Below, piece by piece: positions 24,906-63,263 of a stretch of DNA of 64,000 nt (its first letter is position 1; every line of letters starts with the position of its first letter). The notes under the pieces were generated by a model. That model made no database searches and was not told the origin of the DNA. It worked only from the letters and a program-made list of their open reading frames with translations. Made by a program: the position numbers and the translations under genes. The stretch is from a virus (lineage: Duplodnaviria > Caudoviricetes), in the IMG/VR virus record IMGVR_UViG_2833436851_000001, positions 1-64,000 of that record; one strand, written 5' to 3'.

Positions 24906-27900
24906 ATGGACCAGCACAATTTATATTTGGATTTTGATGCTTTTATTCGTTCGTTTGTCCAGAACCGAGATACATCTTTTGCATTTCTATTAGGTGCTGG
25001 TGCATCTATTACTTCAGGAATGCCTTCTGCTAACGATTGTATATGGGATTGGAAGAAACTTATTTATTGTTCTTCCCAGTCTTCAACTCCTTCATTTATT
25101 GATCCTAAATCAGATACATGTAAAAACATCATTCAGAAATGGCTTGATAATCAAGGTAAATATCCACCTGTTGGGGATGCTCATGAATATTCCTTTTATG
25201 CGGAAAAAGCATTGCCCATTGAGGGGGATAGAGTAAAATATTTTGAGCATTTAGCTCAAGGAAAGCAACCCTATATTGGGTATAAACTTTTATGTCTTCT
25301 GAACAAATACGGCATTGTCAAATCTGTATGGTCAACTAATTTCGATGGCTTGGTTGAACGTGCGGCTCAACAAGCCAACATAACGCCTATCTGTATAAAC
25401 CTGGATTGTACTGATCGAATATATCGGACTGAAAGTAACAATGAATTACTATATATAGCTTTACATGGGGACTATAAATACACATCGTTAAAAAATACTT
25501 CCAAAGAGTTGGATAATCAACACCCGACTTTTGTGGCAGCATTGAAACGATATTTTAGCGATAAGAATCTCATAGTAATCGGTTATAGCGGTCGTGATAA
25601 ATCGCTAATGTCGGCATTAACGGAAGCATTTTCAGAAAGAGGTTCTGGACGCATATATTGGTGTGGTTATGGTTCTGATATACCACCAGAAGTGGAAACC
25701 CTATTAAAAGCTGCAAAAAATGCAAAGCGGGAAGCGTTTTATATTGATACTGACGGTTTTGATAAAACGATGCTTTCGCTGGTTATGAATAGTTTCCATT
25801 CAGACGTAGAAAAACAAAAAGAAATTATGTCTATATTGGAGAGCGTCCCTGAAGACGACAATACATCTCCATTTTCTATTCATATCACGAAGACGGACAA
25901 ATACTTGAAAAGTAATTTGTATCCCATAATCTTTCCTAAGGAACTATTTCAATTTGAGATTGAATATAAAGAAGATGAAAGACCTTGGGCTCTTTTAAGG
26001 GAGCTAACTAAAGACCAAAGTATTATAGCTGTTCCATACAAGCAAAAGGTATATGCTTTATCTACCGGTTCTGCCATTAACAATGTATTCGGATCCCGAC
26101 TCAAAAGTGATATTGAACGGATTCCTGTTTCAATAGACGATATAGAGCAAAAAAGCAGTTATAGGGAACTGTTTTTAAGAGCAATACTACAAAGTATATC
26201 GACAATTCGGGGTCTCAACGTTGATGTTAGGCATAATACACTTTGGCGACCTGATATTTTCAGGAACGATAATGGCATATTGATTCATGAAGCAATAGAA
26301 TGCTCACTTATTTTTGTGCCACAACAAAAATACGCCCTGCTTTCCTTGCGACCAACAATATATATAGAAAACCCACGCACGGTTTCAAAAGAGAAAAAGC
26401 AGGAGTATGCACGGATATATCTGGATAAAATGTGGAACCAGGCATATAGCAATAAACTTATCCAATGGGAGAATATTGTATTTGGCAATGCACGCCTTAT
26501 TTTTGAGTTCCCTCAAAATTCTGGCAGTGGATTTAAATTCCAAATAAGCAACAATAGCGGATTTTCCGAAATACAATATCAGGACAACAACGAACGAGGA
26601 TATTTTTCAAGATCGTATGATAATAGAAGAACGATTTACCGGGGACTTCAACTCAAAGAACCTGAATTAGAATTCGTAAATACATTTGCAGACAGACCTT
26701 TTTTAGATTCAAATCCTATGAGAGGATTATCTAATCATAAGCCTTATGATTCTTGGCAAAAAGATGTTTTGCCTCAAAATGTAAGACTGGGTGTGATCTG
26801 CCCTCATGCTCACACGGATAGATTCAACTCTTTTTTACAACGCTTAAACACAACCGTACAGGCAAACGATAATTCGGATTACATTCAGCCATATACAGGA
26901 TTTCACAGTATATATAAAACATTACTGGAGATTCCTGACCGCAATACAGATAAGTGGATAAAAACAGAAGATACGCCGAGAGATACGATAAGCCTTGCAC
27001 AATCAATATGTCACCAAGCCGGTAGTTTAGCAGATAAATATCCGGGAATTGTGGTTGTAATTTACATACCTACATCTTGGAGTATTCACAAACAATTCAA
27101 GCATAACAGCGAATCGTTTGATTTACACAATTATATAAAGGCTTATGCAGCTCAGCACAGTTTTACAACTCAAATTATAGAAGAAAAGACTCTGAGTGAT
27201 CCAATGGTGTGCGAAATCTGTTGGTGGTTGTCGTTAGCTTTATTTGTTAAGGCAATGCGTATCCCTTGGGCATTAGCCAGTCTTGATTCAGATACGGCGT
27301 ATGCAGGCATTGGTTATAGCGTCAAAACGAATAGTAAAGGAAAAGTGGACATCGTTTTGGGTTGTAGCCACATATACAACGCTAAAGGTCAAGGGTTAAG
27401 ATACAAATTATCAAAAGTTGAGCAACCTCAATTTGATGGGAAAAAGAATCCTTACTTAACTTATGAGGAAGCATTCAAATTTGGAATTACCATACGAGAA
27501 TTGTTCGTTAAATCTATGGATAAATTACCTCGCAGGGTTGTCATTCACAAACGAACACCATTTAGAAATGAAGAAATTGAAGGCATTACTCATGCGCTAA
27601 GTCAAGCGGGAATTAAAGACATCGACTTGATAACCATCAATTATGAATACAATGCTAAATTTATAGCACAAAGAGTTTATAACAACAATATTTCTGACGA
27701 TTCATATCCGGTATCGCGTGGAACTTGCATAAAACTGTCATCAAGAAATGCTTTACTATGGACACATGGTGTTGTTCCATCAATTCGGGGTGGACGGCGC
27801 TACTATCCCGGTGGCAGGTGTATTCCAGCTCCTCTAAAAATAACTAAGTATTATGGTAAAGGAGATCTATCTACTATTGCTTCTGAAATTATTGGATTTA

Positions 27901-28037
27901 CGAAGATGAACTGGAACTCATTCAATTTATATACGAAATTGCCAGCAACAATTGACACTTCTAATACATTGGCACAAGTAGGTAATTTACTGCATCAATA
28001 TAATGGAGCAACATACGATTATCGATATTTTATTTAG
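24906..28037 (+). CDS. Fused SIR2-APAZ-short prokaryotic Argonaute (single-chain SPARSA)
   Basis: SIR2 motifs LLGAGAS, TNFD, LHGDY, IGYSGRD; MID-PIWI (IKAYA...TTQII, AYAGIGYS, VVIHKRTPF, VSRGT, TKMNWNS, LPATI); catalytic Asp positions of PIWI substituted. Confidence 0.9.
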   Translation: MDQHNLYLDFDAFIRSFVQNRDTSFAFLLGAGASITSGMPSANDCIWDWKKLIYCSSQSSTPSFIDPKSDTCKNIIQKWLDNQGKYPPVGDAHEYSFYAEKALPIEGDRVKYFEHLAQGKQPYIGYKLLCLLNKYGIVKSVWSTNFDGLVERAAQQANITPICINLDCTDRIYRTESNNELLYIALHGDYKYTSLKNTSKELDNQHPTFVAALKRYFSDKNLIVIGYSGRDKSLMSALTEAFSERGSGRIYWCGYGSDIPPEVETLLKAAKNAKREAFYIDTDGFDKTMLSLVMNSFHSDVEKQKEIMSILESVPEDDNTSPFSIHITKTDKYLKSNLYPIIFPKELFQFEIEYKEDERPWALLRELTKDQSIIAVPYKQKVYALSTGSAINNVFGSRLKSDIERIPVSIDDIEQKSSYRELFLRAILQSISTIRGLNVDVRHNTLWRPDIFRNDNGILIHEAIECSLIFVPQQKYALLSLRPTIYIENPRTVSKEKKQEYARIYLDKMWNQAYSNKLIQWENIVFGNARLIFEFPQNSGSGFKFQISNNSGFSEIQYQDNNERGYFSRSYDNRRTIYRGLQLKEPELEFVNTFADRPFLDSNPMRGLSNHKPYDSWQKDVLPQNVRLGVICPHAHTDRFNSFLQRLNTTVQANDNSDYIQPYTGFHSIYKTLLEIPDRNTDKWIKTEDTPRDTISLAQSICHQAGSLADKYPGIVVVIYIPTSWSIHKQFKHNSESFDLHNYIKAYAAQHSFTTQIIEEKTLSDPMVCEICWWLSLALFVKAMRIPWALASLDSDTAYAGIGYSVKTNSKGKVDIVLGCSHIYNAKGQGLRYKLSKVEQPQFDGKKNPYLTYEEAFKFGITIRELFVKSMDKLPRRVVIHKRTPFRNEEIEGITHALSQAGIKDIDLITINYEYNAKFIAQRVYNNNISDDSYPVSRGTCIKLSSRNALLWTHGVVPSIRGGRRYYPGGRCIPAPLKITKYYGKGDLSTIASEIIGFTKMNWNSFNLYTKLPATIDTSNTLAQVGNLLHQYNGATYDYRYFI

Positions 28038-46282: not shown

Positions 46283-47527
46283 ATGATTATTCAGTTCACA
46301 GTTGAAAATTTCCTTTCATTCAAGGAGGCGGCGACACTTTCGTTGGCAGCTTCGGCTTTGAAGGAAAAACAAACCTCGTCGGAGGACATCGTTTTTGAAC
46401 TGACCGGAACGAATCTTTCTTTGCTGAAAAGTGCCGTTGTGTACGGAGCCAATGCCAGCGGAAAGTCCAATTTGATAAAGGCTCTTGATTTCTTCAAGTG
46501 GTTTGTCATCAACTCGTCCAAAGGCGTGCAGTCCGGTGAGCGCATACAGCAGGTGGAAAGTTTTCGTCTCAACCGCAGTACAGAGAATGAACCCAGCTAT
46601 TTCGAGGCTGTCTTTGCGGATGAACAGTCCCAGTACCGGTACGGTTTCGAAGTGGATGAGAAACGGGTTTACAGAGAATGGCTTTACCAAAAGAGCAATA
46701 AGAAAAAGGCAAAGGAAGTCGAGTTGTTCCTGCGCAACCTGGATGAGTATGAATTGCATCCGAAATTTGCCGTCGGGAAAGAGGTGGTTGCTAAAAAGAT
46801 GGTGCGCGACAATGCACTGTTGTTGTCCGTAGCCGCGCAATTCAATGAAACCGTTTCGGTGGAAATCATGGAGTGGCTGGCCAATACGACCATCGTGCTG
46901 GGGAGCAGTGACGAGCGGATATGGAAAATGGCAACCCAGCAAATCGATAATCCCGAAATGAAGCAGCGTATTGTCGAGTTTGCCCAATTTGCCGATTTCG
47001 GAATAGACGACATCCGCAAGGTTGATAATACGGTCATCAGTTCGCATCAGCAGTATGACGAAACGGGAAAAGCCACGAAAATGGTCACTTTCCCGTTCCG
47101 GAAGAACGAATCGGAAGGCACAATCAAGTATTTTTCATTGGCCTATCCGATTATTGACGCGTTGGATCACGGCAAACGGCTGGTCATCGACGAGTTCGAC
47201 TCGAAGATGCACCCGCTGCTGACCTGTAAAATCATTGCGCTCTTCAACTCCCGGCTGACGAACTCCAAAAATGCACAGTTGATTTTTACGACGCATGATA
47301 CGAACCTGTTGAATGCAAATCTGTTCCGCAGGGATCAGGTGTGGTTTACCCAAAAAGATTCGCTGGGGGCGTCGGAGTTGTATTCGCTGGCAGAGTACAA
47401 AGTGCGCAATAGTGCGCCTTTTGAGAAAGAGTATCTCATGGGGAAATATGGTGGTGTGCCTATCGTTGGCCAATTCGAGCGTTTGTTTGACCAGAAAGAA
47501 GAGACGGAAGATGGCACGGATGAATAA
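46283..47527 (+). CDS. RloA/AbiLi-like AAA (ABC-type) ATPase
   Basis: VENFLSF, YGANASGKSN, ESEGT, VIDEFDSKMHP, QLIFTTHD, YLMGKYGGVP; TATATTTG -7 box at 46245-46252. Confidence 0.88.
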   Translation: MIIQFTVENFLSFKEAATLSLAASALKEKQTSSEDIVFELTGTNLSLLKSAVVYGANASGKSNLIKALDFFKWFVINSSKGVQSGERIQQVESFRLNRSTENEPSYFEAVFADEQSQYRYGFEVDEKRVYREWLYQKSNKKKAKEVELFLRNLDEYELHPKFAVGKEVVAKKMVRDNALLLSVAAQFNETVSVEIMEWLANTTIVLGSSDERIWKMATQQIDNPEMKQRIVEFAQFADFGIDDIRKVDNTVISSHQQYDETGKATKMVTFPFRKNESEGTIKYFSLAYPIIDALDHGKRLVIDEFDSKMHPLLTCKIIALFNSRLTNSKNAQLIFTTHDTNLLNANLFRRDQVWFTQKDSLGASELYSLAEYKVRNSAPFEKEYLMGKYGGVPIVGQFERLFDQKEETEDGTDE

Positions 47528-54855: not shown

Positions 54856-56163
54856 CTACGGATTGGTATCGGTTTGTTTTACGCCACGGGGATGACCGTA
54901 GCGTTTGTAATATTCCTCGTCCGACATGATGCCCCGGTCGGATGAGCTTCCACCGACTGCCACACTGCCTCCGCCACCCATGCCGGGTATCACATTGAGC
55001 TGCTTGCCCACGACGATGCCGAACTCTTTCTCTATTTCATCCGCCGCCACCTCGTACTTGTCCGTGATGAGCGAGTAGAGCTTAATACGGTCTTCGTTAT
55101 TCATGTCGATGCGGTTGGAATACTTGAATTCCAGTCCGGCGGGGATATAGCCCATCGCCACGAGCCGGGGGATGATCTGCTCGTTCATCACGTTCTCGAT
55201 ATAGCGGCGATATACCTCGATGCGGTCGCGGAAGATGTCCTGATGCGCCTTGGTGGAGCCGACATACGACTGCATGCCTCCGGCCATCGATTCGGAGCCG
55301 AGAATAAGGTTCGAGACCTCCTTGTTGGCGAACTGAATCAGTCCGGTATATATCTTCTCGCTGTTGGACATGGTGAAGGTCTTGATATCAACTTCATCCT
55401 CCAGCCCCGTTACGATGATCTTATTCTGAGCCGCATTGGAGATGTCCTGTGCCAGACGCTTGCGGTCCATATTGTTTTCACTGACGGTCTTTCCGTGAAT
55501 AACCGGCTGACCATACGAATGACTGAAATTCAAATAGTTAGCAACCGTAAACTTTTTGGCGAGAATCAGCGGCGTCGTGGCCGAGAAAAGCCCGAGATCT
55601 CCCGTCTTGATGAGCACATAACGCTTCCGGTAGGCGGCCGAGTGAATGTCCCAGTGCGGCAGCCACAGTCCTTGCCGTTTGACGACAATGCCCTGTTCGG
55701 GTAGGACGTTGCGGCGTTCGATACTGTTTACCTCCTTCAGCCGTCCCGTCTCAGGATCGGTATCGGGCATGATTTCCAGCAGCGTATAGCCGTAGAGCTT
55801 GGCCTCGATGATGCCTCGGATGATTTTGTCGAACTGAGAACCCTGTATCTTCTGGCTCTCTTTCACATCCTTGACGTATTTGCCCTTGTCGTTCAAACGG
55901 GCGAGCATATAGCGGTCTCCGAGTATCTGGCTTTCGAGTGTCTCGATGACCGCGCGGATGTGCGCATCCTGTTGCAGGCACGCATCGTACAGGTCGATCA
56001 GACGCGCCCGGTCGTCGAGGATGGTTCCCAGCAGCATGTTCGAGCGCACCGAACGGTAGCGGTTGTGCCGTTCGATTTCCCGCACGTATTCCTGAATCGT
56101 TTTTTTCGACGTGTGGAATATGCTTTCGAGCAATTCGCGGTTAAATGTTCCTTCTTCCTGCAT
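54856..56163 (-). CDS. Portal protein (Mu gp29/DUF935-like)
   Basis: LYDACLQQDAHI, YGYTLLE, YGQP, NKEVSNLILG; heads the morphogenesis operon. Confidence 0.8.
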   Translation of the reverse strand: MQEEGTFNRELLESIFHTSKKTIQEYVREIERHNRYRSVRSNMLLGTILDDRARLIDLYDACLQQDAHIRAVIETLESQILGDRYMLARLNDKGKYVKDVKESQKIQGSQFDKIIRGIIEAKLYGYTLLEIMPDTDPETGRLKEVNSIERRNVLPEQGIVVKRQGLWLPHWDIHSAAYRKRYVLIKTGDLGLFSATTPLILAKKFTVANYLNFSHSYGQPVIHGKTVSENNMDRKRLAQDISNAAQNKIIVTGLEDEVDIKTFTMSNSEKIYTGLIQFANKEVSNLILGSESMAGGMQSYVGSTKAHQDIFRDRIEVYRRYIENVMNEQIIPRLVAMGYIPAGLEFKYSNRIDMNNEDRIKLYSLITDKYEVAADEIEKEFGIVVGKQLNVIPGMGGGGSVAVGGSSSDRGIMSDEEYYKRYGHPRGVKQTDTNP

Positions 56164-57262: not shown

Positions 57263-58747
57263 ATGAAAAGCAATGCGATACTATGTGAAGAGTACCCGGT
57301 CAGGGTGCTGTTCAACGATGACAAAACCTTGGCATGGGTAAACCTCCATGACCTCTGCAAAGTATTGGGGCGCGAGGAGATGTTGACCGACAAGGCGGCT
57401 ATCCGCCAGTTGCCCTCCAGTATTCAGATTCCGTTCCGCAAGAAAGGACGCGAGATGTGGGCCATCAGCCCTTACGACGTCTATAAGCTGATCCGGCCCA
57501 TGCGGCGCGAAAACTCCATCGCGGCAAAGAAGTGCGCCGCAGTGGAGACGTGGCTGAACGAACTGCTCGAAGACGCGGCCATACAGTCTGCCAAAGCGAC
57601 GCGACCCGCACAGCAGGAAGACGTGGTGTTCAGCTATCAGGACCATCCGATCTCTTTTCGTGCTGCGAACAATAAGATGATGATAAACGCCACGCAGATG
57701 GCCCGCAGCTTCGGAGTTTTGCCCGCAGAGATACTGCGCAAGGCGGATTTCGTCCGCTATCGCCAACATCTGGTCGAGAAGGGCATCTCGGAAAGCCTCG
57801 ACAGCCAGATTTTTACCACGCGCGGCCGTAACAACGGGGCGACATGGATCGATGAAGAGCTGGCGATGGAGTTCGCCCGGCAGTTGTCGCCGGAGTTCTC
57901 GCAATGGTGCAACACGAAAATCAACGAACTGATGACACGGGGCTATGTCACATTGGAACCCAGACCCGAAAGCGGCATGGGCACTACCGAGAATCTGCCC
58001 GTGCCGCAAAGCCTCGACGAGGCGCAGCAGTTGATTGTCGCCCAACGCCACGAAATACACCTGCAACAGGAACGCATCGAAGCCGATTCCTACAAGGTGG
58101 AGTTTTACGACAACCTGATCGAGGGTCGGGACTTCTATTCGACGACATGGCTCGCGCAGGAGCTCAATACGACACCCCGGCAGTTGCACCAGTTCCTTGC
58201 CGAGAAAGGCATCTGCAAGTTCTCGAAAAACCAGTGGATAGCCTTCCTGCCATACCGAAGCTGGCAAATCGACATGCCGTATTACTGGAATAACCTGCGC
58301 ACCGGCAAGTGCTACGCGGCAGGAACACGGAAACGATGGAGCAAGATCGGCCGTGACCAGATTCTTGAACTCTGGAACAGGGAACCGCCTAAACGTCCAG
58401 AGCTGCCGTCCGGACGCCGTAGGGTGGAAAACCCGTACAGCCATCTGACGGAAGGCGTGGATTATTTCACACCCACACAACTCGCCCGGGAAATCGGTAT
58501 CTCAGCCAACCGAATGAGTCAGTTTTTGGAAAATAGCGGCATTTGTCAGTTCGAGAAGAGGCAATGGGCTGTCCTGCCTGAATATCGGGAATGGCAAATC
58601 GACGTGCCGTACTACTGGACGAATCCCAAAACTCAGAAACGATGGGCATTCGGTACCCGTAAGCGGTGGTCACTACTCGGCAGGGAAAAAATCATCGAAT
58701 TGTGGAACAAACGAAATGCCGAACAACAACCGGAAGAGACAGCATGA
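57263..58747 (+). CDS. Antirepressor-like protein: BRO-N-like, KilA-N and two KilAC/ANT-like domains
   Basis: WVNLHDLCKVLG; MINATQMARSFG...GATWIDEELAMEFARQLSPEFSQWC; duplicated C-terminal domain. Confidence 0.8.
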   Translation: MKSNAILCEEYPVRVLFNDDKTLAWVNLHDLCKVLGREEMLTDKAAIRQLPSSIQIPFRKKGREMWAISPYDVYKLIRPMRRENSIAAKKCAAVETWLNELLEDAAIQSAKATRPAQQEDVVFSYQDHPISFRAANNKMMINATQMARSFGVLPAEILRKADFVRYRQHLVEKGISESLDSQIFTTRGRNNGATWIDEELAMEFARQLSPEFSQWCNTKINELMTRGYVTLEPRPESGMGTTENLPVPQSLDEAQQLIVAQRHEIHLQQERIEADSYKVEFYDNLIEGRDFYSTTWLAQELNTTPRQLHQFLAEKGICKFSKNQWIAFLPYRSWQIDMPYYWNNLRTGKCYAAGTRKRWSKIGRDQILELWNREPPKRPELPSGRRRVENPYSHLTEGVDYFTPTQLAREIGISANRMSQFLENSGICQFEKRQWAVLPEYREWQIDVPYYWTNPKTQKRWAFGTRKRWSLLGREKIIELWNKRNAEQQPEETA

Positions 58748-60948: not shown

Positions 60949-61777
60949 CCGGTATTTGCATCTATAAATTATATACAGGTTTACTTTAGGCAAAGATAGA
61001 GATTGTCCGGGAAATGCGGGCTTAATTTATCAATTTTCTTTTTAGGGGAACCTAATAAAAGTTTCGACAAAAAATTCGATAATTCATTAGCGCATAAATT
61101 CCTATACAAGACTATATATGCGACCGCCTGCTTTGACATCCAAGCTCGGTATGTTTCAGCCGGTGACATTCTCCGCATAACCGTGTCTGCCATAACATGA
61201 AATGACAATCGTCAAAAGGATCCGCCAATGCAAAGCCGGCGGGTAAATGGATTCTTGCAAAGTCTGTCAATGACCTGACGGATTCTCCTGCTGCAAATCC
61301 TGTTCTATTTTGAACAAATAATCCCCCGAAACCGTGCCAAACTTTGAACAAAAAAGTCAGAGCCAAAAATGGGACTTGAAAATCAGGCCGTAGGGCGCGT
61401 ATCGAATCCGCACCAGGGGTAGTACCCACCCCGTTATTTTTAAAAATTATTAGTACATTGTTATTCAATTATTTACAACCTTCACTTTGTAGAAAAGTGA
61501 AACTAAAAGCCTATAAATAGACCTTTGTTTCTTTCGGATTGAAAGCAAAAAAAAATTCTCCCTTGTTTTTAGTCTGTTTTTTAACTCGCAAATAATTGAC
61601 TATCAATATATATAGTTTTTCTTTCAGTCTGTTTTTGAGCGTTGAACCCTATATTTTTTTTGAAAAAATTTTTTCTTTTCTGCAATAGGTTGATTTTCAA
61701 TCAAATAGGAATAACCCTCGCGCGCGGGCGTCCACTCTCATTTTAGAGCCGTTTTGTCAGTCGGACGAAAAAAATTA

Positions 61778-61809
61778 TTTGGAGGATTGAAAAATTTGTT
61801 TTAGAGTTG
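61778..61809 (+). promoter_or_regulatory. Bacteroidota-type promoter ahead of the structured region
   Basis: TTTG (61778-81), 20-nt spacer, TAGAGTTG (one mismatch to TAnnTTTG). Confidence 0.55.
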
Positions 61810-61814
61810 AATTG

Positions 61815-62615
61815 AACCCGAAAGGGAAACAGCCCCGACAAACAGACGGGGAAAACAGAAACAAAAAATATACAGACTTTCAAAAGCGACACAACCGCAA
61901 CAAGTCTGTAAATAGTAAAAACAAAAAAAGTCAGTAAGTAAGAAACAGACAGCAAAAACCGCAACAGCGAGAAAACAAAAGCCTTTTTTGTGGGAAACCT
62001 ATTTTTGAGGCTTGGAAAATCAAAAATTCGTCCGTGCGTTTTGGAACGCTTAAATAGGGTGTCAAACAACCACACCGAGCGGAACGGCAAACCAATGCCG
62101 CAAGTCGGAACGGTCGAAATACGTGTATTTTGTCCGCATACGCAAAGCCCGTGATTTTGGGAGGGCGAGAGTCGTATGGAAAAGGGAGGCGATAAAATAA
62201 TGCCATAAGTCTGCCCTTGCGCAGCCGGAGATAAAAATCGCTATGCGGTAAAAACAATCCGCACGGAGCTTGAGAAAAGAGCATTGCCAATGTCATGCCC
62301 ACAATCACCAGCCGCCAACCGCCCTAATGTTAGCTGCCCCGTTGGAAAAGACGGGGGACGTGCCAAAGAAGCACCCGTCGAAATTGGAGTATGTCGGGCT
62401 TGCCATGACAGCGGATAATCGTCTTTGCGTGTGAACGATGCAAATATAGGGCTTTTTTCCGAAATAGCGAGTATAGGGCACGTTTTAGTGAGGTGCAAAT
62501 TGAGATGAAATCTGCACGCTATCGGGTGAAAGGTAGCGTGCGATTTTTGGGCACGCACAGGTCGTGCCGTTTTGCCATCCGCAGAACGTGCGGTTCGATT
62601 CCGCAGTGCCCTCAA
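61815..62615 (+). ncRNA. Candidate large structured non-coding RNA (about 800 nt) ending in a tRNA-like domain
   Basis: About 15 hairpins separated by A-rich linkers, one long-range helix, terminal acceptor stem plus T-arm; no convincing ORF. Confidence 0.6.
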
Positions 62616-62654
62616 TATGCACTATCGCATAGAAACCAACTAAATTTTATCATT

Positions 62655-63263
62655 ATGGCAATCAGTAAGTTAAATGCAGAACAGTTTGCAAACATGGCAG
62701 TTAATGCCGCAGGTGTGGTTTTCGAGTATGCCGGCAAAGACGGCAAAAACACGGCTATGCACTTTTTCGGTGCCGATTACGAAGCGACCGTGAAAACGCA
62801 GGACGAAATGTTCCGTGTACTGCGCAACGTGGTAACGACATTCTGGGAAGTGAAGACCAAAGAATCGCTGCTCCGTGAATCGAATGACGGTATCCGCTCG
62901 AAACTCCGTGCAGGAACTCCGCACCGGCTCATCATTCGCACCTCCGCAGGCATTACGGTCAAAGTCTTCGACCTCGATGCAAGCGTATGGGCGCGAATCG
63001 GGTTAATGCCGACCAAAAAGGACTTGGAACGCTCCGCCCGCGACCGCAAGAAGTACATCCACAATGCCACCAAAGCACTCATGGAGGCACTGAATTTCCG
63101 TGTGGAACTGCCCAAGGACATCGCCCAGACCGAAGAGGTGCAGACCGAACAGGTTGTCGCCGAAAGTGCGACGCCCGTAGCCGAAACGGTGGCGGAACAG
63201 CCTGCCCGCAGGCGTGGCAGAAAGCCGAGAAACGGAGCGGAACCCGTAGCTGTTGCAGCGTAA
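62655..63263 (+). CDS. Hypothetical protein (202 aa, acidic/basic disordered tail)
   Basis: Start MAISKLNAEQ after an AT-rich initiation region; followed by a terminator. Confidence 0.75.
   Translation: MAISKLNAEQFANMAVNAAGVVFEYAGKDGKNTAMHFFGADYEATVKTQDEMFRVLRNVVTTFWEVKTKESLLRESNDGIRSKLRAGTPHRLIIRTSAGITVKVFDLDASVWARIGLMPTKKDLERSARDRKKYIHNATKALMEALNFRVELPKDIAQTEEVQTEQVVAESATPVAETVAEQPARRRGRKPRNGAEPVAVAA

Follow-up and report, generated by a model that had tools for sequence, protein, structure and literature searches.

A compact tRNA-like cloverleaf in the 5' leader of an operon in gut Bacteroidales prophages

Introduction

What does a tRNA-like structure do when it is fixed in front of a protein-coding operon? 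The question is raised by an 85.7-kb provirus record in IMG/VR (IMGVR_UViG_2833436851_000001), the first 64 kb of which (positions 1 to 64,000, here called the window) were analysed. A tRNA-like element lies at the end of a stretch of about 1.6 kb that is poor in open reading frames (ORFs), and 42 nt separate its end from the ATG (62655) of a conserved plus-strand gene for a protein of 202 amino acids (62655-63263), the first in a series of plus-strand genes forming a rightward operon. The original prediction joined AGGGCAC (62475-81) to GTGCCCT (62606-12) as a seven-pair acceptor stem, placed about 100 nt where the D and anticodon arms would be, and saw in the element either a signal releasing a large RNA from the downstream mRNA or a tRNA decoy. 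Comparison with relatives retains a tRNA-like RNA on the plus strand with an intact acceptor and T-arm half; the architecture proposed around that half gives way to a compact cloverleaf of 64 nt (62549-62612, plus strand), which lies at the 3' end of a leader of about 170 nt. The fold, its conservation and its fixed position are demonstrated by this comparison, and the function is argued below from what selection has kept.

Which fold has been conserved

The letters on which the original prediction relied are all in place. AGGGCAC at 62475-81 has its perfect complement at 62606-12, directly preceded by the T-arm TGCGG-TTCGATT-CCGCA (62589-605), and both internal hairpins are present. GGGCAC occurs twice, at 62476-81 and at 62549-54, and for either copy GTGCCC at 62606-11 is a possible partner. 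When 62475-62613 is folded as a single sequence, the structure of lowest energy contains the 62475-81 stem (-63.2 kcal/mol, z-score -5.2), and RNAalifold selects the same stem on an alignment dominated by close relatives of the window; the 65-nt piece with the second copy by itself folds as a cloverleaf (-32.2 kcal/mol, z-score -4.15). Which of the two copies has evolution kept as the partner?

Loci were fetched through the downstream 202-residue protein (32 viral, 17 from species genomes and 79 from metagenomes, the last out of 148 hits), and a covariance model, R1, was built on the leader. R1 detected the leader in 72 of 72 sources holding the 202-residue gene, as 44 distinct sequences. Structure statistics refer to an alignment of these 44 distinct rows (72 loci), the test of the first copy to 32 diverse sequences, and both to 500 column shuffles.

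For the first-copy stems (with 62606-12 and with 62583-87), 75.4% of cells are paired against 75.2% after shuffling, and 236 of the 500 shuffles score as high. Both sides change in only two of the 12 pairs, four cells in total, while shuffles average 2.4 such pairs and reach at least the observed value in 417 of 500 cases. Wherever the partner of its invariant C has changed, in 10 of the 32 rows, the first copy is left with a mismatch; pair 12-305 is broken in 10/32 and pair 7-311 in 22/32. The seven-pair stem is thus at the shuffled level as an acceptor, and the three-way junction of transfer-messenger RNA (tmRNA) type that would use it lacks support from covariation. The same 3' base behaves very differently with the second copy, where acceptor pair 175-305 reads CG in 29 sequences, GC in six, UG in four, UA in three and AU in one. 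This decisive pair sits between invariant flanks and is independent of the model fit. It is the second GGGCAC, 62549-54, that has been conserved as partner of the 3' strand.

Over the whole leader, 94.8% of cells in the model-fitted alignment are paired against 79.4% after shuffling (0/500 shuffles as high), both sides change in 32 of 42 pairs, and pairing drops to 30-50% when partners are slid by one to three columns. The acceptor helix is paired in 95.8% of cells with both-sided changes in 3/6 pairs, the D-like helix in 100% (4/4), the anticodon-like helix in 93.7% (7/7) and the T-stem in 99.4% (3/4); two hairpins outside the cloverleaf, P2 upstream and P5 downstream, reach 94.0% (7/8) and 98.9% (3/6). 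The acceptor, D-like, T and P5 helices also emerged when 14 diverse copies were aligned with MAFFT, without any fit to the structure. Because G-U pairs, which would be A-C mismatches on the other strand, are frequent, the structured strand is the plus strand.

How tRNA-like is the cloverleaf?

All parts of the cloverleaf lie on the plus strand. An acceptor stem of six pairs (62549-54/62606-11) leads into a D-like hairpin (62555-67, loop AGGTC) and an anticodon-like hairpin (62569-87), which in the window has a 7-bp stem and the 5-nt loop CATCC; the T-arm (62589-62605, loop TTCGATT) follows, and an unpaired base in the place of tRNA base 73 (62612) is succeeded by C74. The absence of an anticodon arm and the roughly 100 nt in place of the D and anticodon arms, both stated in the original prediction, therefore do not hold for the conserved fold, since D-like and anticodon-like hairpins are both found within its 64 nt.

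The acceptor/T minihelix with its elbow, the free base 73 and a host-like 3' trailer have been kept. The acceptor opens with G1-C72, the 5-bp T-stem covaries, its fifth pair included, and G53-C61 is invariant. The element has the canonical T-loop (TTCRANN) and the GG of a D-loop, by which the elbow can be closed: the T-loop reads TTCGAnn in 30 of 32 rows, and the D-like loop carries GG in 30 of 32. The two rows without GG (L039 and L215) are the only two with U for C56 in the T-loop, a coincidence suggestive of the elbow pair G19-C56 having become A-U, although it would represent a single evolutionary event. The base after the acceptor stem is unpaired and varies between U, A and G, and the next base is C in 32/32 rows (alignment A7). 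In the most divergent clade (L045, L256, L257, L258), an insertion of about 50 nt is seen in the D-like arm.

The anticodon-like arm has been treated otherwise. Its stem ranges from 4 to 7 bp and its loop from 4 to 9 nt across relatives, the sequences are unrelated, and the arm is absent in L176; it does not follow the canonical arm, in which a stem of 5 bp carries a loop of 7 nt with U33 and a purine in position 37. Because this arm is so variable, the element cannot decode, and the varying base 73 argues against charging by a single synthetase. What selection preserves, then, is the acceptor with G1-C72 stacked on a T-stem of 5 bp, the canonical T-loop, the GG of the D-like loop, a free base 73 and the C74 after it; the anticodon-like arm it disregards. 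The full tRNA geometry (a 7-bp acceptor on a 5-bp T-stem, bases 8 and 9, a variable loop of at least 4 nt) is not present.

Programs built for tRNA genes pass the element by. As the original prediction expected, ARAGORN calls no tRNA and no tmRNA in the 64-kb window, and it calls no tRNA gene in the related loci L262, L176 and L173. Rfam, searched over 61700-62800 with E-values up to 10, gives no tRNA, tmRNA or C4 match and reports RF02943 only. On the genome of an Alistipes lysogen (G001), the tRNA model RF00005 finds 48 tRNAs, and the leader is not among them. R1 run over 151 Bacteroidales genomes returns the known lysogen and two weak matches (about 23 bits), both of which ARAGORN identifies as genuine tRNA genes, tRNA-Ala(GGC) and tRNA-Cys(GCA), and which align to the model arm for arm.

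The 3' side was compared with the flanks of the 20 higher-scoring of the 48 tRNA genes of G001. C74 is encoded in 20/20, full CCA in three, and CAA after base 73 in five; the base following C74 is A in 11, T in four, C in three and G in two. The mimic follows this host trailer rule, with base 73, then CAA, the C being invariant. The lack of an encoded CCA, correctly noted in the original prediction, is ordinary for this host, because only three of the 20 tRNA genes encode it.

The T-loop as such carries little weight. Its 11-mer has a second exact copy within a gene (52324-34, minus strand), and with one mismatch six matches occur against 5.85 expected, so that the 11-mer alone is not beyond chance; the weight rests on the combination of features and on its conservation.

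A leader proposed to be cut by tRNA-processing enzymes

Why should selection hold on to one half of a tRNA and neglect the other? An acceptor/T minihelix, an elbow, a free base 73 and C74 make up the set of features recognised by RNase P and by the pathway that matures tRNA 3' ends. A processing signal is favoured because selection keeps this recognition set and ignores the anticodon arm: the leader would be a substrate that the host's tRNA end-processing enzymes cut. We give this reading, which in its general role is shared with the original prediction, a probability of roughly 0.4, and it is accordingly put forward as tentative.

Under such a scheme, RNase P of the host would cut between U62548 and G62549, with the U-rich linker upstream serving as the 5' leader of the tRNA-like part, and the host's 3' tRNA maturation pathway would cut at or just after base 73. 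Three products are predicted: a small RNA consisting of hairpins P1 and P2 with a U-tail, a free tRNA-like RNA of about 64 nt, and an mRNA beginning three bases before hairpin P5, which could protect its new 5' end. According to part of PMC11143913, RNase P is reported to cut pre-tmRNA, the tRNA-like ends of plant viruses, the phage C4 antisense RNA and mRNAs.

Several observations weigh against this reading. The acceptor and T stems stack to 11 bp and not 12, with only six conserved acceptor pairs; an extra base (0-1; one in most lineages) stands between the T-stem and the 3' strand of the acceptor; in one clade (10/44 rows) acceptor pair 5 is a conserved mismatch, U-U; and bases 8 and 9 are missing, as is the usual variable loop of 4-5 nt, the variable region being reduced to 1-2 nt. 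Real enzymes may refuse such a shape. In addition, CAATATGC and the loop of P2 are invariant, and both point to sequence-specific binding, which simple punctuation would not need. The paired percentages given above are inflated, since alignments A6 and A7 were fitted by a model already holding this structure. Finally, no clear Bacteroides-type plus-strand promoter was found between 62363 and 62650, and the RNA runs, which consist of contigs only, show nothing specific to the leader and no transcript ends.

The rest of the leader and the 202-residue gene

The leader as a whole consists of P1, P2, the U-rich linker, the cloverleaf, CAA and P5. It is preceded by, or starts with, the first copy of the repeated motif (62475-62492, plus strand; AGGGCAC-GTTTTAG...), the 5' acceptor strand of the original prediction. 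The core of this copy, CACGTT, is nearly invariant even where pairing with the 3' strand is impossible (L041, L176, L179, L045), and it may represent a site at the DNA level, the 5' end of the plus-strand RNA, or a pairing target. A sigma-54 reading of TGGCAC in the first copy was rejected by eye, the -12 element being missing at the proper spacing.

Hairpin P1 (62495-62515, GCAAATT/AATCTGC) is the weakest of the leader, its helices 1 and 2 being paired in 90.7% and 78.3% of cells; its pair 36-97 is AU in 30 sequences and GC in eight. P2 (62516-62539) has a stem of 8-10 bp and the conserved loop GGGTGAAA (62524-31), and its G-U pairs (UG in 17 sequences at pair 107-132) are compatible with the plus strand only. 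The U-rich linker GCGATTTTT (62540-62548) follows, and in most lineages the bases before G1 are U-rich. A kissing interaction of the P2 loop with the anticodon-like one was considered and dropped, the complementarity being confined to the window. Downstream of the cloverleaf, the invariant CAA (62613-62615) leads into P5 (62616-31, TATGCA-CTAT-CGCATA, plus strand), in which UA is switched to CG in nine sequences, and an A/T-rich stretch separates P5 from the ATG. A small ORF in P5 was ruled out, since in one clade its ATG has turned into ACG and a second change compensates for this in the hairpin.

These parts would suit a leader that is bound and not cut, and this is the strongest of the alternatives, although it is itself rather unlikely. 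The cloverleaf, the P2 loop and CAA-P5 would then be docking sites for a protein, either the 202-residue product in an autoregulatory role or a host factor that binds tRNA, which would thereby govern translation or decide whether P1 or an extended P2 terminator forms. The leader always stands directly upstream of the 202-residue gene (72/72 loci), and both the loop GGGTGAAA and CAATATGC are invariant, as a docking site would be. A terminator scan listed 62513-62542 plus ATTTTT as terminator-like, and P2 with the linker indeed has the appearance of an intrinsic terminator. Two partners are open to TGC at 62513-15, P1 on the left and the stretch just after P2 on the right, the latter being the choice of RNAalifold. 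Some covariation is seen at pair 36-97 of P1 and at pair 97-143 of the extended P2 (UA in 21, CG in five, GC in two); the layout would resemble an attenuator, with a covariation signal that comes from few clades. Against a bound leader, the three-way covariation derives mainly from one or two clades, and termination is not a universal feature because the T-run is missing in the clade of L240, L177 and L227. The putative binder, moreover, has no recognisable RNA-binding family or fold. Pfam, PHROGs and NCBIfam give no family match for the 202-residue protein, a profile search of PDB stays at E-values of at least 0.055, and no usable hit was found in the ESM Atlas; 98 of 98 homologues are unnamed or 'hypothetical'. 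Its AlphaFold2 model (mean predicted local distance difference test score, pLDDT, 70.5) has no Foldseek match at E <= 0.001 in PDB and BFVD, and VIA-align reaches a best Z of 4.5. A bound leader would also leave unexplained why exactly the features for tRNA end processing are retained.

The neighbouring Bacteroidales-2 RNA

The only large RNA of the locus lies on the opposite strand. RF02943, the sole Rfam 15 family reported in the window, matches at 61972-62363 (minus strand, 392 nt, 434.3 bits) and corresponds to the Bacteroidales-2 RNA. Its minus-strand 3' end is a terminal hairpin with a U-run. The cloverleaf lies 186 nt past its 5' end, on the other strand, and is not part of RF02943. Upstream of Bacteroidales-2, a box of the Bacteroides -7 type, TATATTTG, is located at 62441-48 (minus strand). 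In most lineages the plus strand reads CAAATATA, 19 nt, CAAA, 8 nt, GGCACG; on the minus strand this array becomes TTTG, 19 nt, TAnnTTTG, facing Bacteroidales-2, which we take to be the Bacteroides promoter consensus. The first copy of the repeated motif sits just beyond the -33 box of this promoter in most lineages. The release of a large RNA from the mRNA, as originally proposed, is therefore unlikely: the element cannot free Bacteroidales-2, because that RNA is minus-strand by its Rfam match, its terminal hairpin and U-run and its promoter boxes, and is transcribed away from the leader.

Leader and Bacteroidales-2 stand head-to-head on opposite strands, about 110 nt apart, at 24 of 28 loci (7/8 and 17/20 in the two sets). 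One of the four loci without Bacteroidales-2 is truncated and three come from the most divergent clade; no match at gathering score was found in L045, L256 and L257. Among the 151 sampled genomes, each of the two was found in one only, and it is the same genome. Bacteroidales-2, the leader and the 202-residue gene travel as one module. An inverted pair of GGCACGT, 113 bp apart (62357-62363 and 62477-62483), flanks the divergent promoter region, one copy starting the Bacteroidales-2 model and the other starting the leader; the pair may consist of operator sites or of 5'-end motifs that the two transcripts share. A 259-nt identical contig from an RNA library (run X5) covers 62030-62288, wholly inside Bacteroidales-2, and two metatranscriptome runs contain 71.7-kb contigs spanning the whole region, which are uninformative. 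About 1 kb past the Bacteroidales-2 terminator (about 61000-61970) is devoid of a convincing ORF, as is the corresponding stretch in two divergent relatives (L041:750-1800, L045:510-2000), and may hold a further non-coding RNA or regulatory DNA.

Could the tRNA-like RNA, once excised, work in trans? It might act as a regulator of immunity or of the early operon in the manner of the C4 RNA of P1 and P7 or the CI RNA of P4, its 3' half pairing with the GGGCAC-GTTTT first copy in nascent leaders, or it might partner Bacteroidales-2. The first copy does duplicate the 5' side of the acceptor stem and that of the anticodon-like stem, which makes it complementary to their 3' sides (7/7 plus 5/5 in the window), and L173 has altered both copies together; the co-occurrence with Bacteroidales-2 and the cutting of phage C4 RNA by RNase P, reported in part of PMC11143913, are also consistent with it. 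However, across the 32 relatives this complementarity is at the shuffled level, it is broken in L041, L176, L179 and L045, and no C4 match was obtained from Rfam at E-values up to 10, so that a role in trans appears improbable. Just as much of a long shot is the idea that the mimic and Bacteroidales-2 together make up a control module of two RNAs, seated where the early promoters of the prophages diverge, with the mimic excised by RNase P and the 3' tRNA pathway. The mimic would then act in trans on GGGCAC-GTTTT of its own leader and trigger termination at P2, an RNA-based immunity of the P4 CI or P1 C4 kind. Alternatively, its tRNA elbow would dock the 392-nt RNA. If true, the module would be the first functional context for the orphan Bacteroidales-2 RNA.

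Alternative fold, decoy or relic?

The pairing proposed by the original prediction might still exist as a second conformer within the clade to which the window belongs. In the window and its close relatives it gives the lower energy (-63.2 kcal/mol for 62475-62613), RNAalifold chooses it on the alignment that they dominate, and it would provide the canonical stack of 7 and 5 bp. It is nevertheless improbable, with pair 12-305 broken in 10 and pair 7-311 in 22 of the 32 relatives while the rival pairing covaries, and its 5' strand may even precede the start of transcription.

A decoy that absorbs host nucleases or toxins aimed at tRNA is very unlikely. The idea suits a phage-borne tRNA look-alike in a prophage with defence-type genes. 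However, the anticodon-like loop varies in length and sequence by lineage, and its arm is missing in L176; no particular anticodon loop is mimicked. The element is also present as one copy per genome, fixed within an mRNA leader.

A decayed tRNA gene or a functionless tRNA-derived att half, as a tRNA-like sequence in a prophage on which ARAGORN and the Rfam tRNA model are silent might suggest, is scarcely credible, being contradicted by compensatory changes in every helix across 44 distinct sequences and by a fixed internal position before one gene, distant from the prophage ends, in an element whose Mu-type portal hints at transposition and not at integration into a tRNA site.

Distribution and prophage context

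The element is common in gut Bacteroidales of humans and animals, and the named genomes include Alistipes, Rikenellaceae, Butyricimonas, Bacteroides and Dysgonomonas. One cultivable lysogen that carries it is Alistipes putredinis DSM 17216 (locus L169/L265). An exact 25-mer of it is present in 10 viral contigs, and a metagenome scan yielded 148 stretches that code for a relative of the 202-residue protein. R1 locates the leader upstream of the 202-residue gene in 29 of 34 sources; its five misses comprise two loci truncated by the edge of their contig and three unrelated ones that a failed pattern scan had supplied. That scan of genome contigs with GTGCCCNCAATATGC was unspecific, giving 120 mostly unrelated loci, and R1 did not find the element in the three Bacteroidales-type loci tested among them (L080, L082, L093). 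The leader is present once in each of five genomes or records tested. A blastn search with the element found no match in a phage collection, and tblastn with the 202-residue protein found one unannotated record, where the leader is present.

Near the element, the prophage encodes a Mu-type portal (54856-56163, minus strand), a KilA-N/ANT antirepressor (57263-58747, plus strand), a ClpP-type protease and a tape-measure-like protein. Two defence-type genes lie in or beside the prophage, for a 1043-residue protein with a SIR2-like domain (24906-28037, plus strand) and a 414-residue AAA_21 ATPase of the AbiEii type (46283-47527, plus strand). Further downstream in the record (68896-70161, L002:6896-8161), a 421-residue reverse transcriptase matches RVT_1 and has weak similarity to group II, retron and Drt enzymes; close by are a DUF3846 protein and fragments of an N6-methylase and of an integrase-family protein. 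No direct repeats of at least 40 nt and no template-variable pair were found within 12 kb, so that this is probably not a diversity-generating retroelement.

Relation to known tRNA-like RNAs

The closest parallel to a processing signal may be found in eukaryotes. mascRNA and its kind are punctuation signals of about 60 nt that fold as cloverleaves, with a conserved acceptor, T-arm and elbow and an unconserved anticodon loop. As there, a cloverleaf is embedded in a longer transcript, and cuts by RNase P and RNase Z would set the ends of the neighbouring RNAs. In contrast, the eukaryotic signals mark the 3' end of long non-coding RNAs, whereas this one occupies a 5' leader in a bacterial prophage, has an 11-bp stack and a core nearly without spacers, and is a putative processing substrate. 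With tmRNA the element shares an acceptor, a canonical T-arm and the inability to decode. In tmRNA, however, the D stem is lacking, a long-range helix takes over from the anticodon arm, with a tag frame and pseudoknots in between, and the third acceptor pair is G3-U70; in the element the D-like and anticodon-like hairpins form locally, a tag frame is absent and the third pair is G3-C70.

Among phage RNAs, the C4 RNA of P1 and P7 and the CI RNA of P4 are likewise small structured RNAs in the operon leader of temperate phages, and they differ in that no conserved target complementarity was found here in 32 relatives and no Rfam match at E-values up to 10. Neither C4 nor the P4 CI RNA is known to be a cloverleaf with a T-loop. 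The excision of C4 by RNase P (PMC11143913, in part) is a further likeness. The large RNAs GOLLD and ROOL are described, in part of PMC5737381, as lying close to tRNA genes in prophages. Here too a large prophage RNA is closely adjoined by a tRNA-type element, but the RNA is Bacteroidales-2 (392 nt), and what adjoins it, on the other strand, is a mimic and not a tRNA. The tRNA-like 3' structures of plant viruses and the bacterial YrlA RNA also mimic the L-shape of tRNA through an elbow of T-loop and D-loop. Those of plant viruses are 3'-terminal and aminoacylated, whereas the element lies in a 5' leader and its base 73 varies. YrlA ends at the anticodon side and adjoins the gene for the Ro protein.

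Full-text searches of a literature library found no paper connecting a tRNA-like element with prophages of Bacteroidales or with Bacteroidales-2, and no report of a tRNA mimic that has its fixed place in the 5' leader of such an operon, a point on which the supplements of the Bacteroidales-2 paper may bear; the main text of that paper does not discuss the motif. No Rfam 15 family matches the element. The element is thus a new family, while tRNA mimics as such have precedents in tmRNA, in plant viruses and in long non-coding RNAs of eukaryotes.

If host tRNA-processing enzymes cut the leader, it would be a clean bacterial case of tRNA-type mRNA punctuation. The orphan Bacteroidales-2 RNA, for its part, gains a defined partner and a locus, both of which can be tested in cultivable lysogens.

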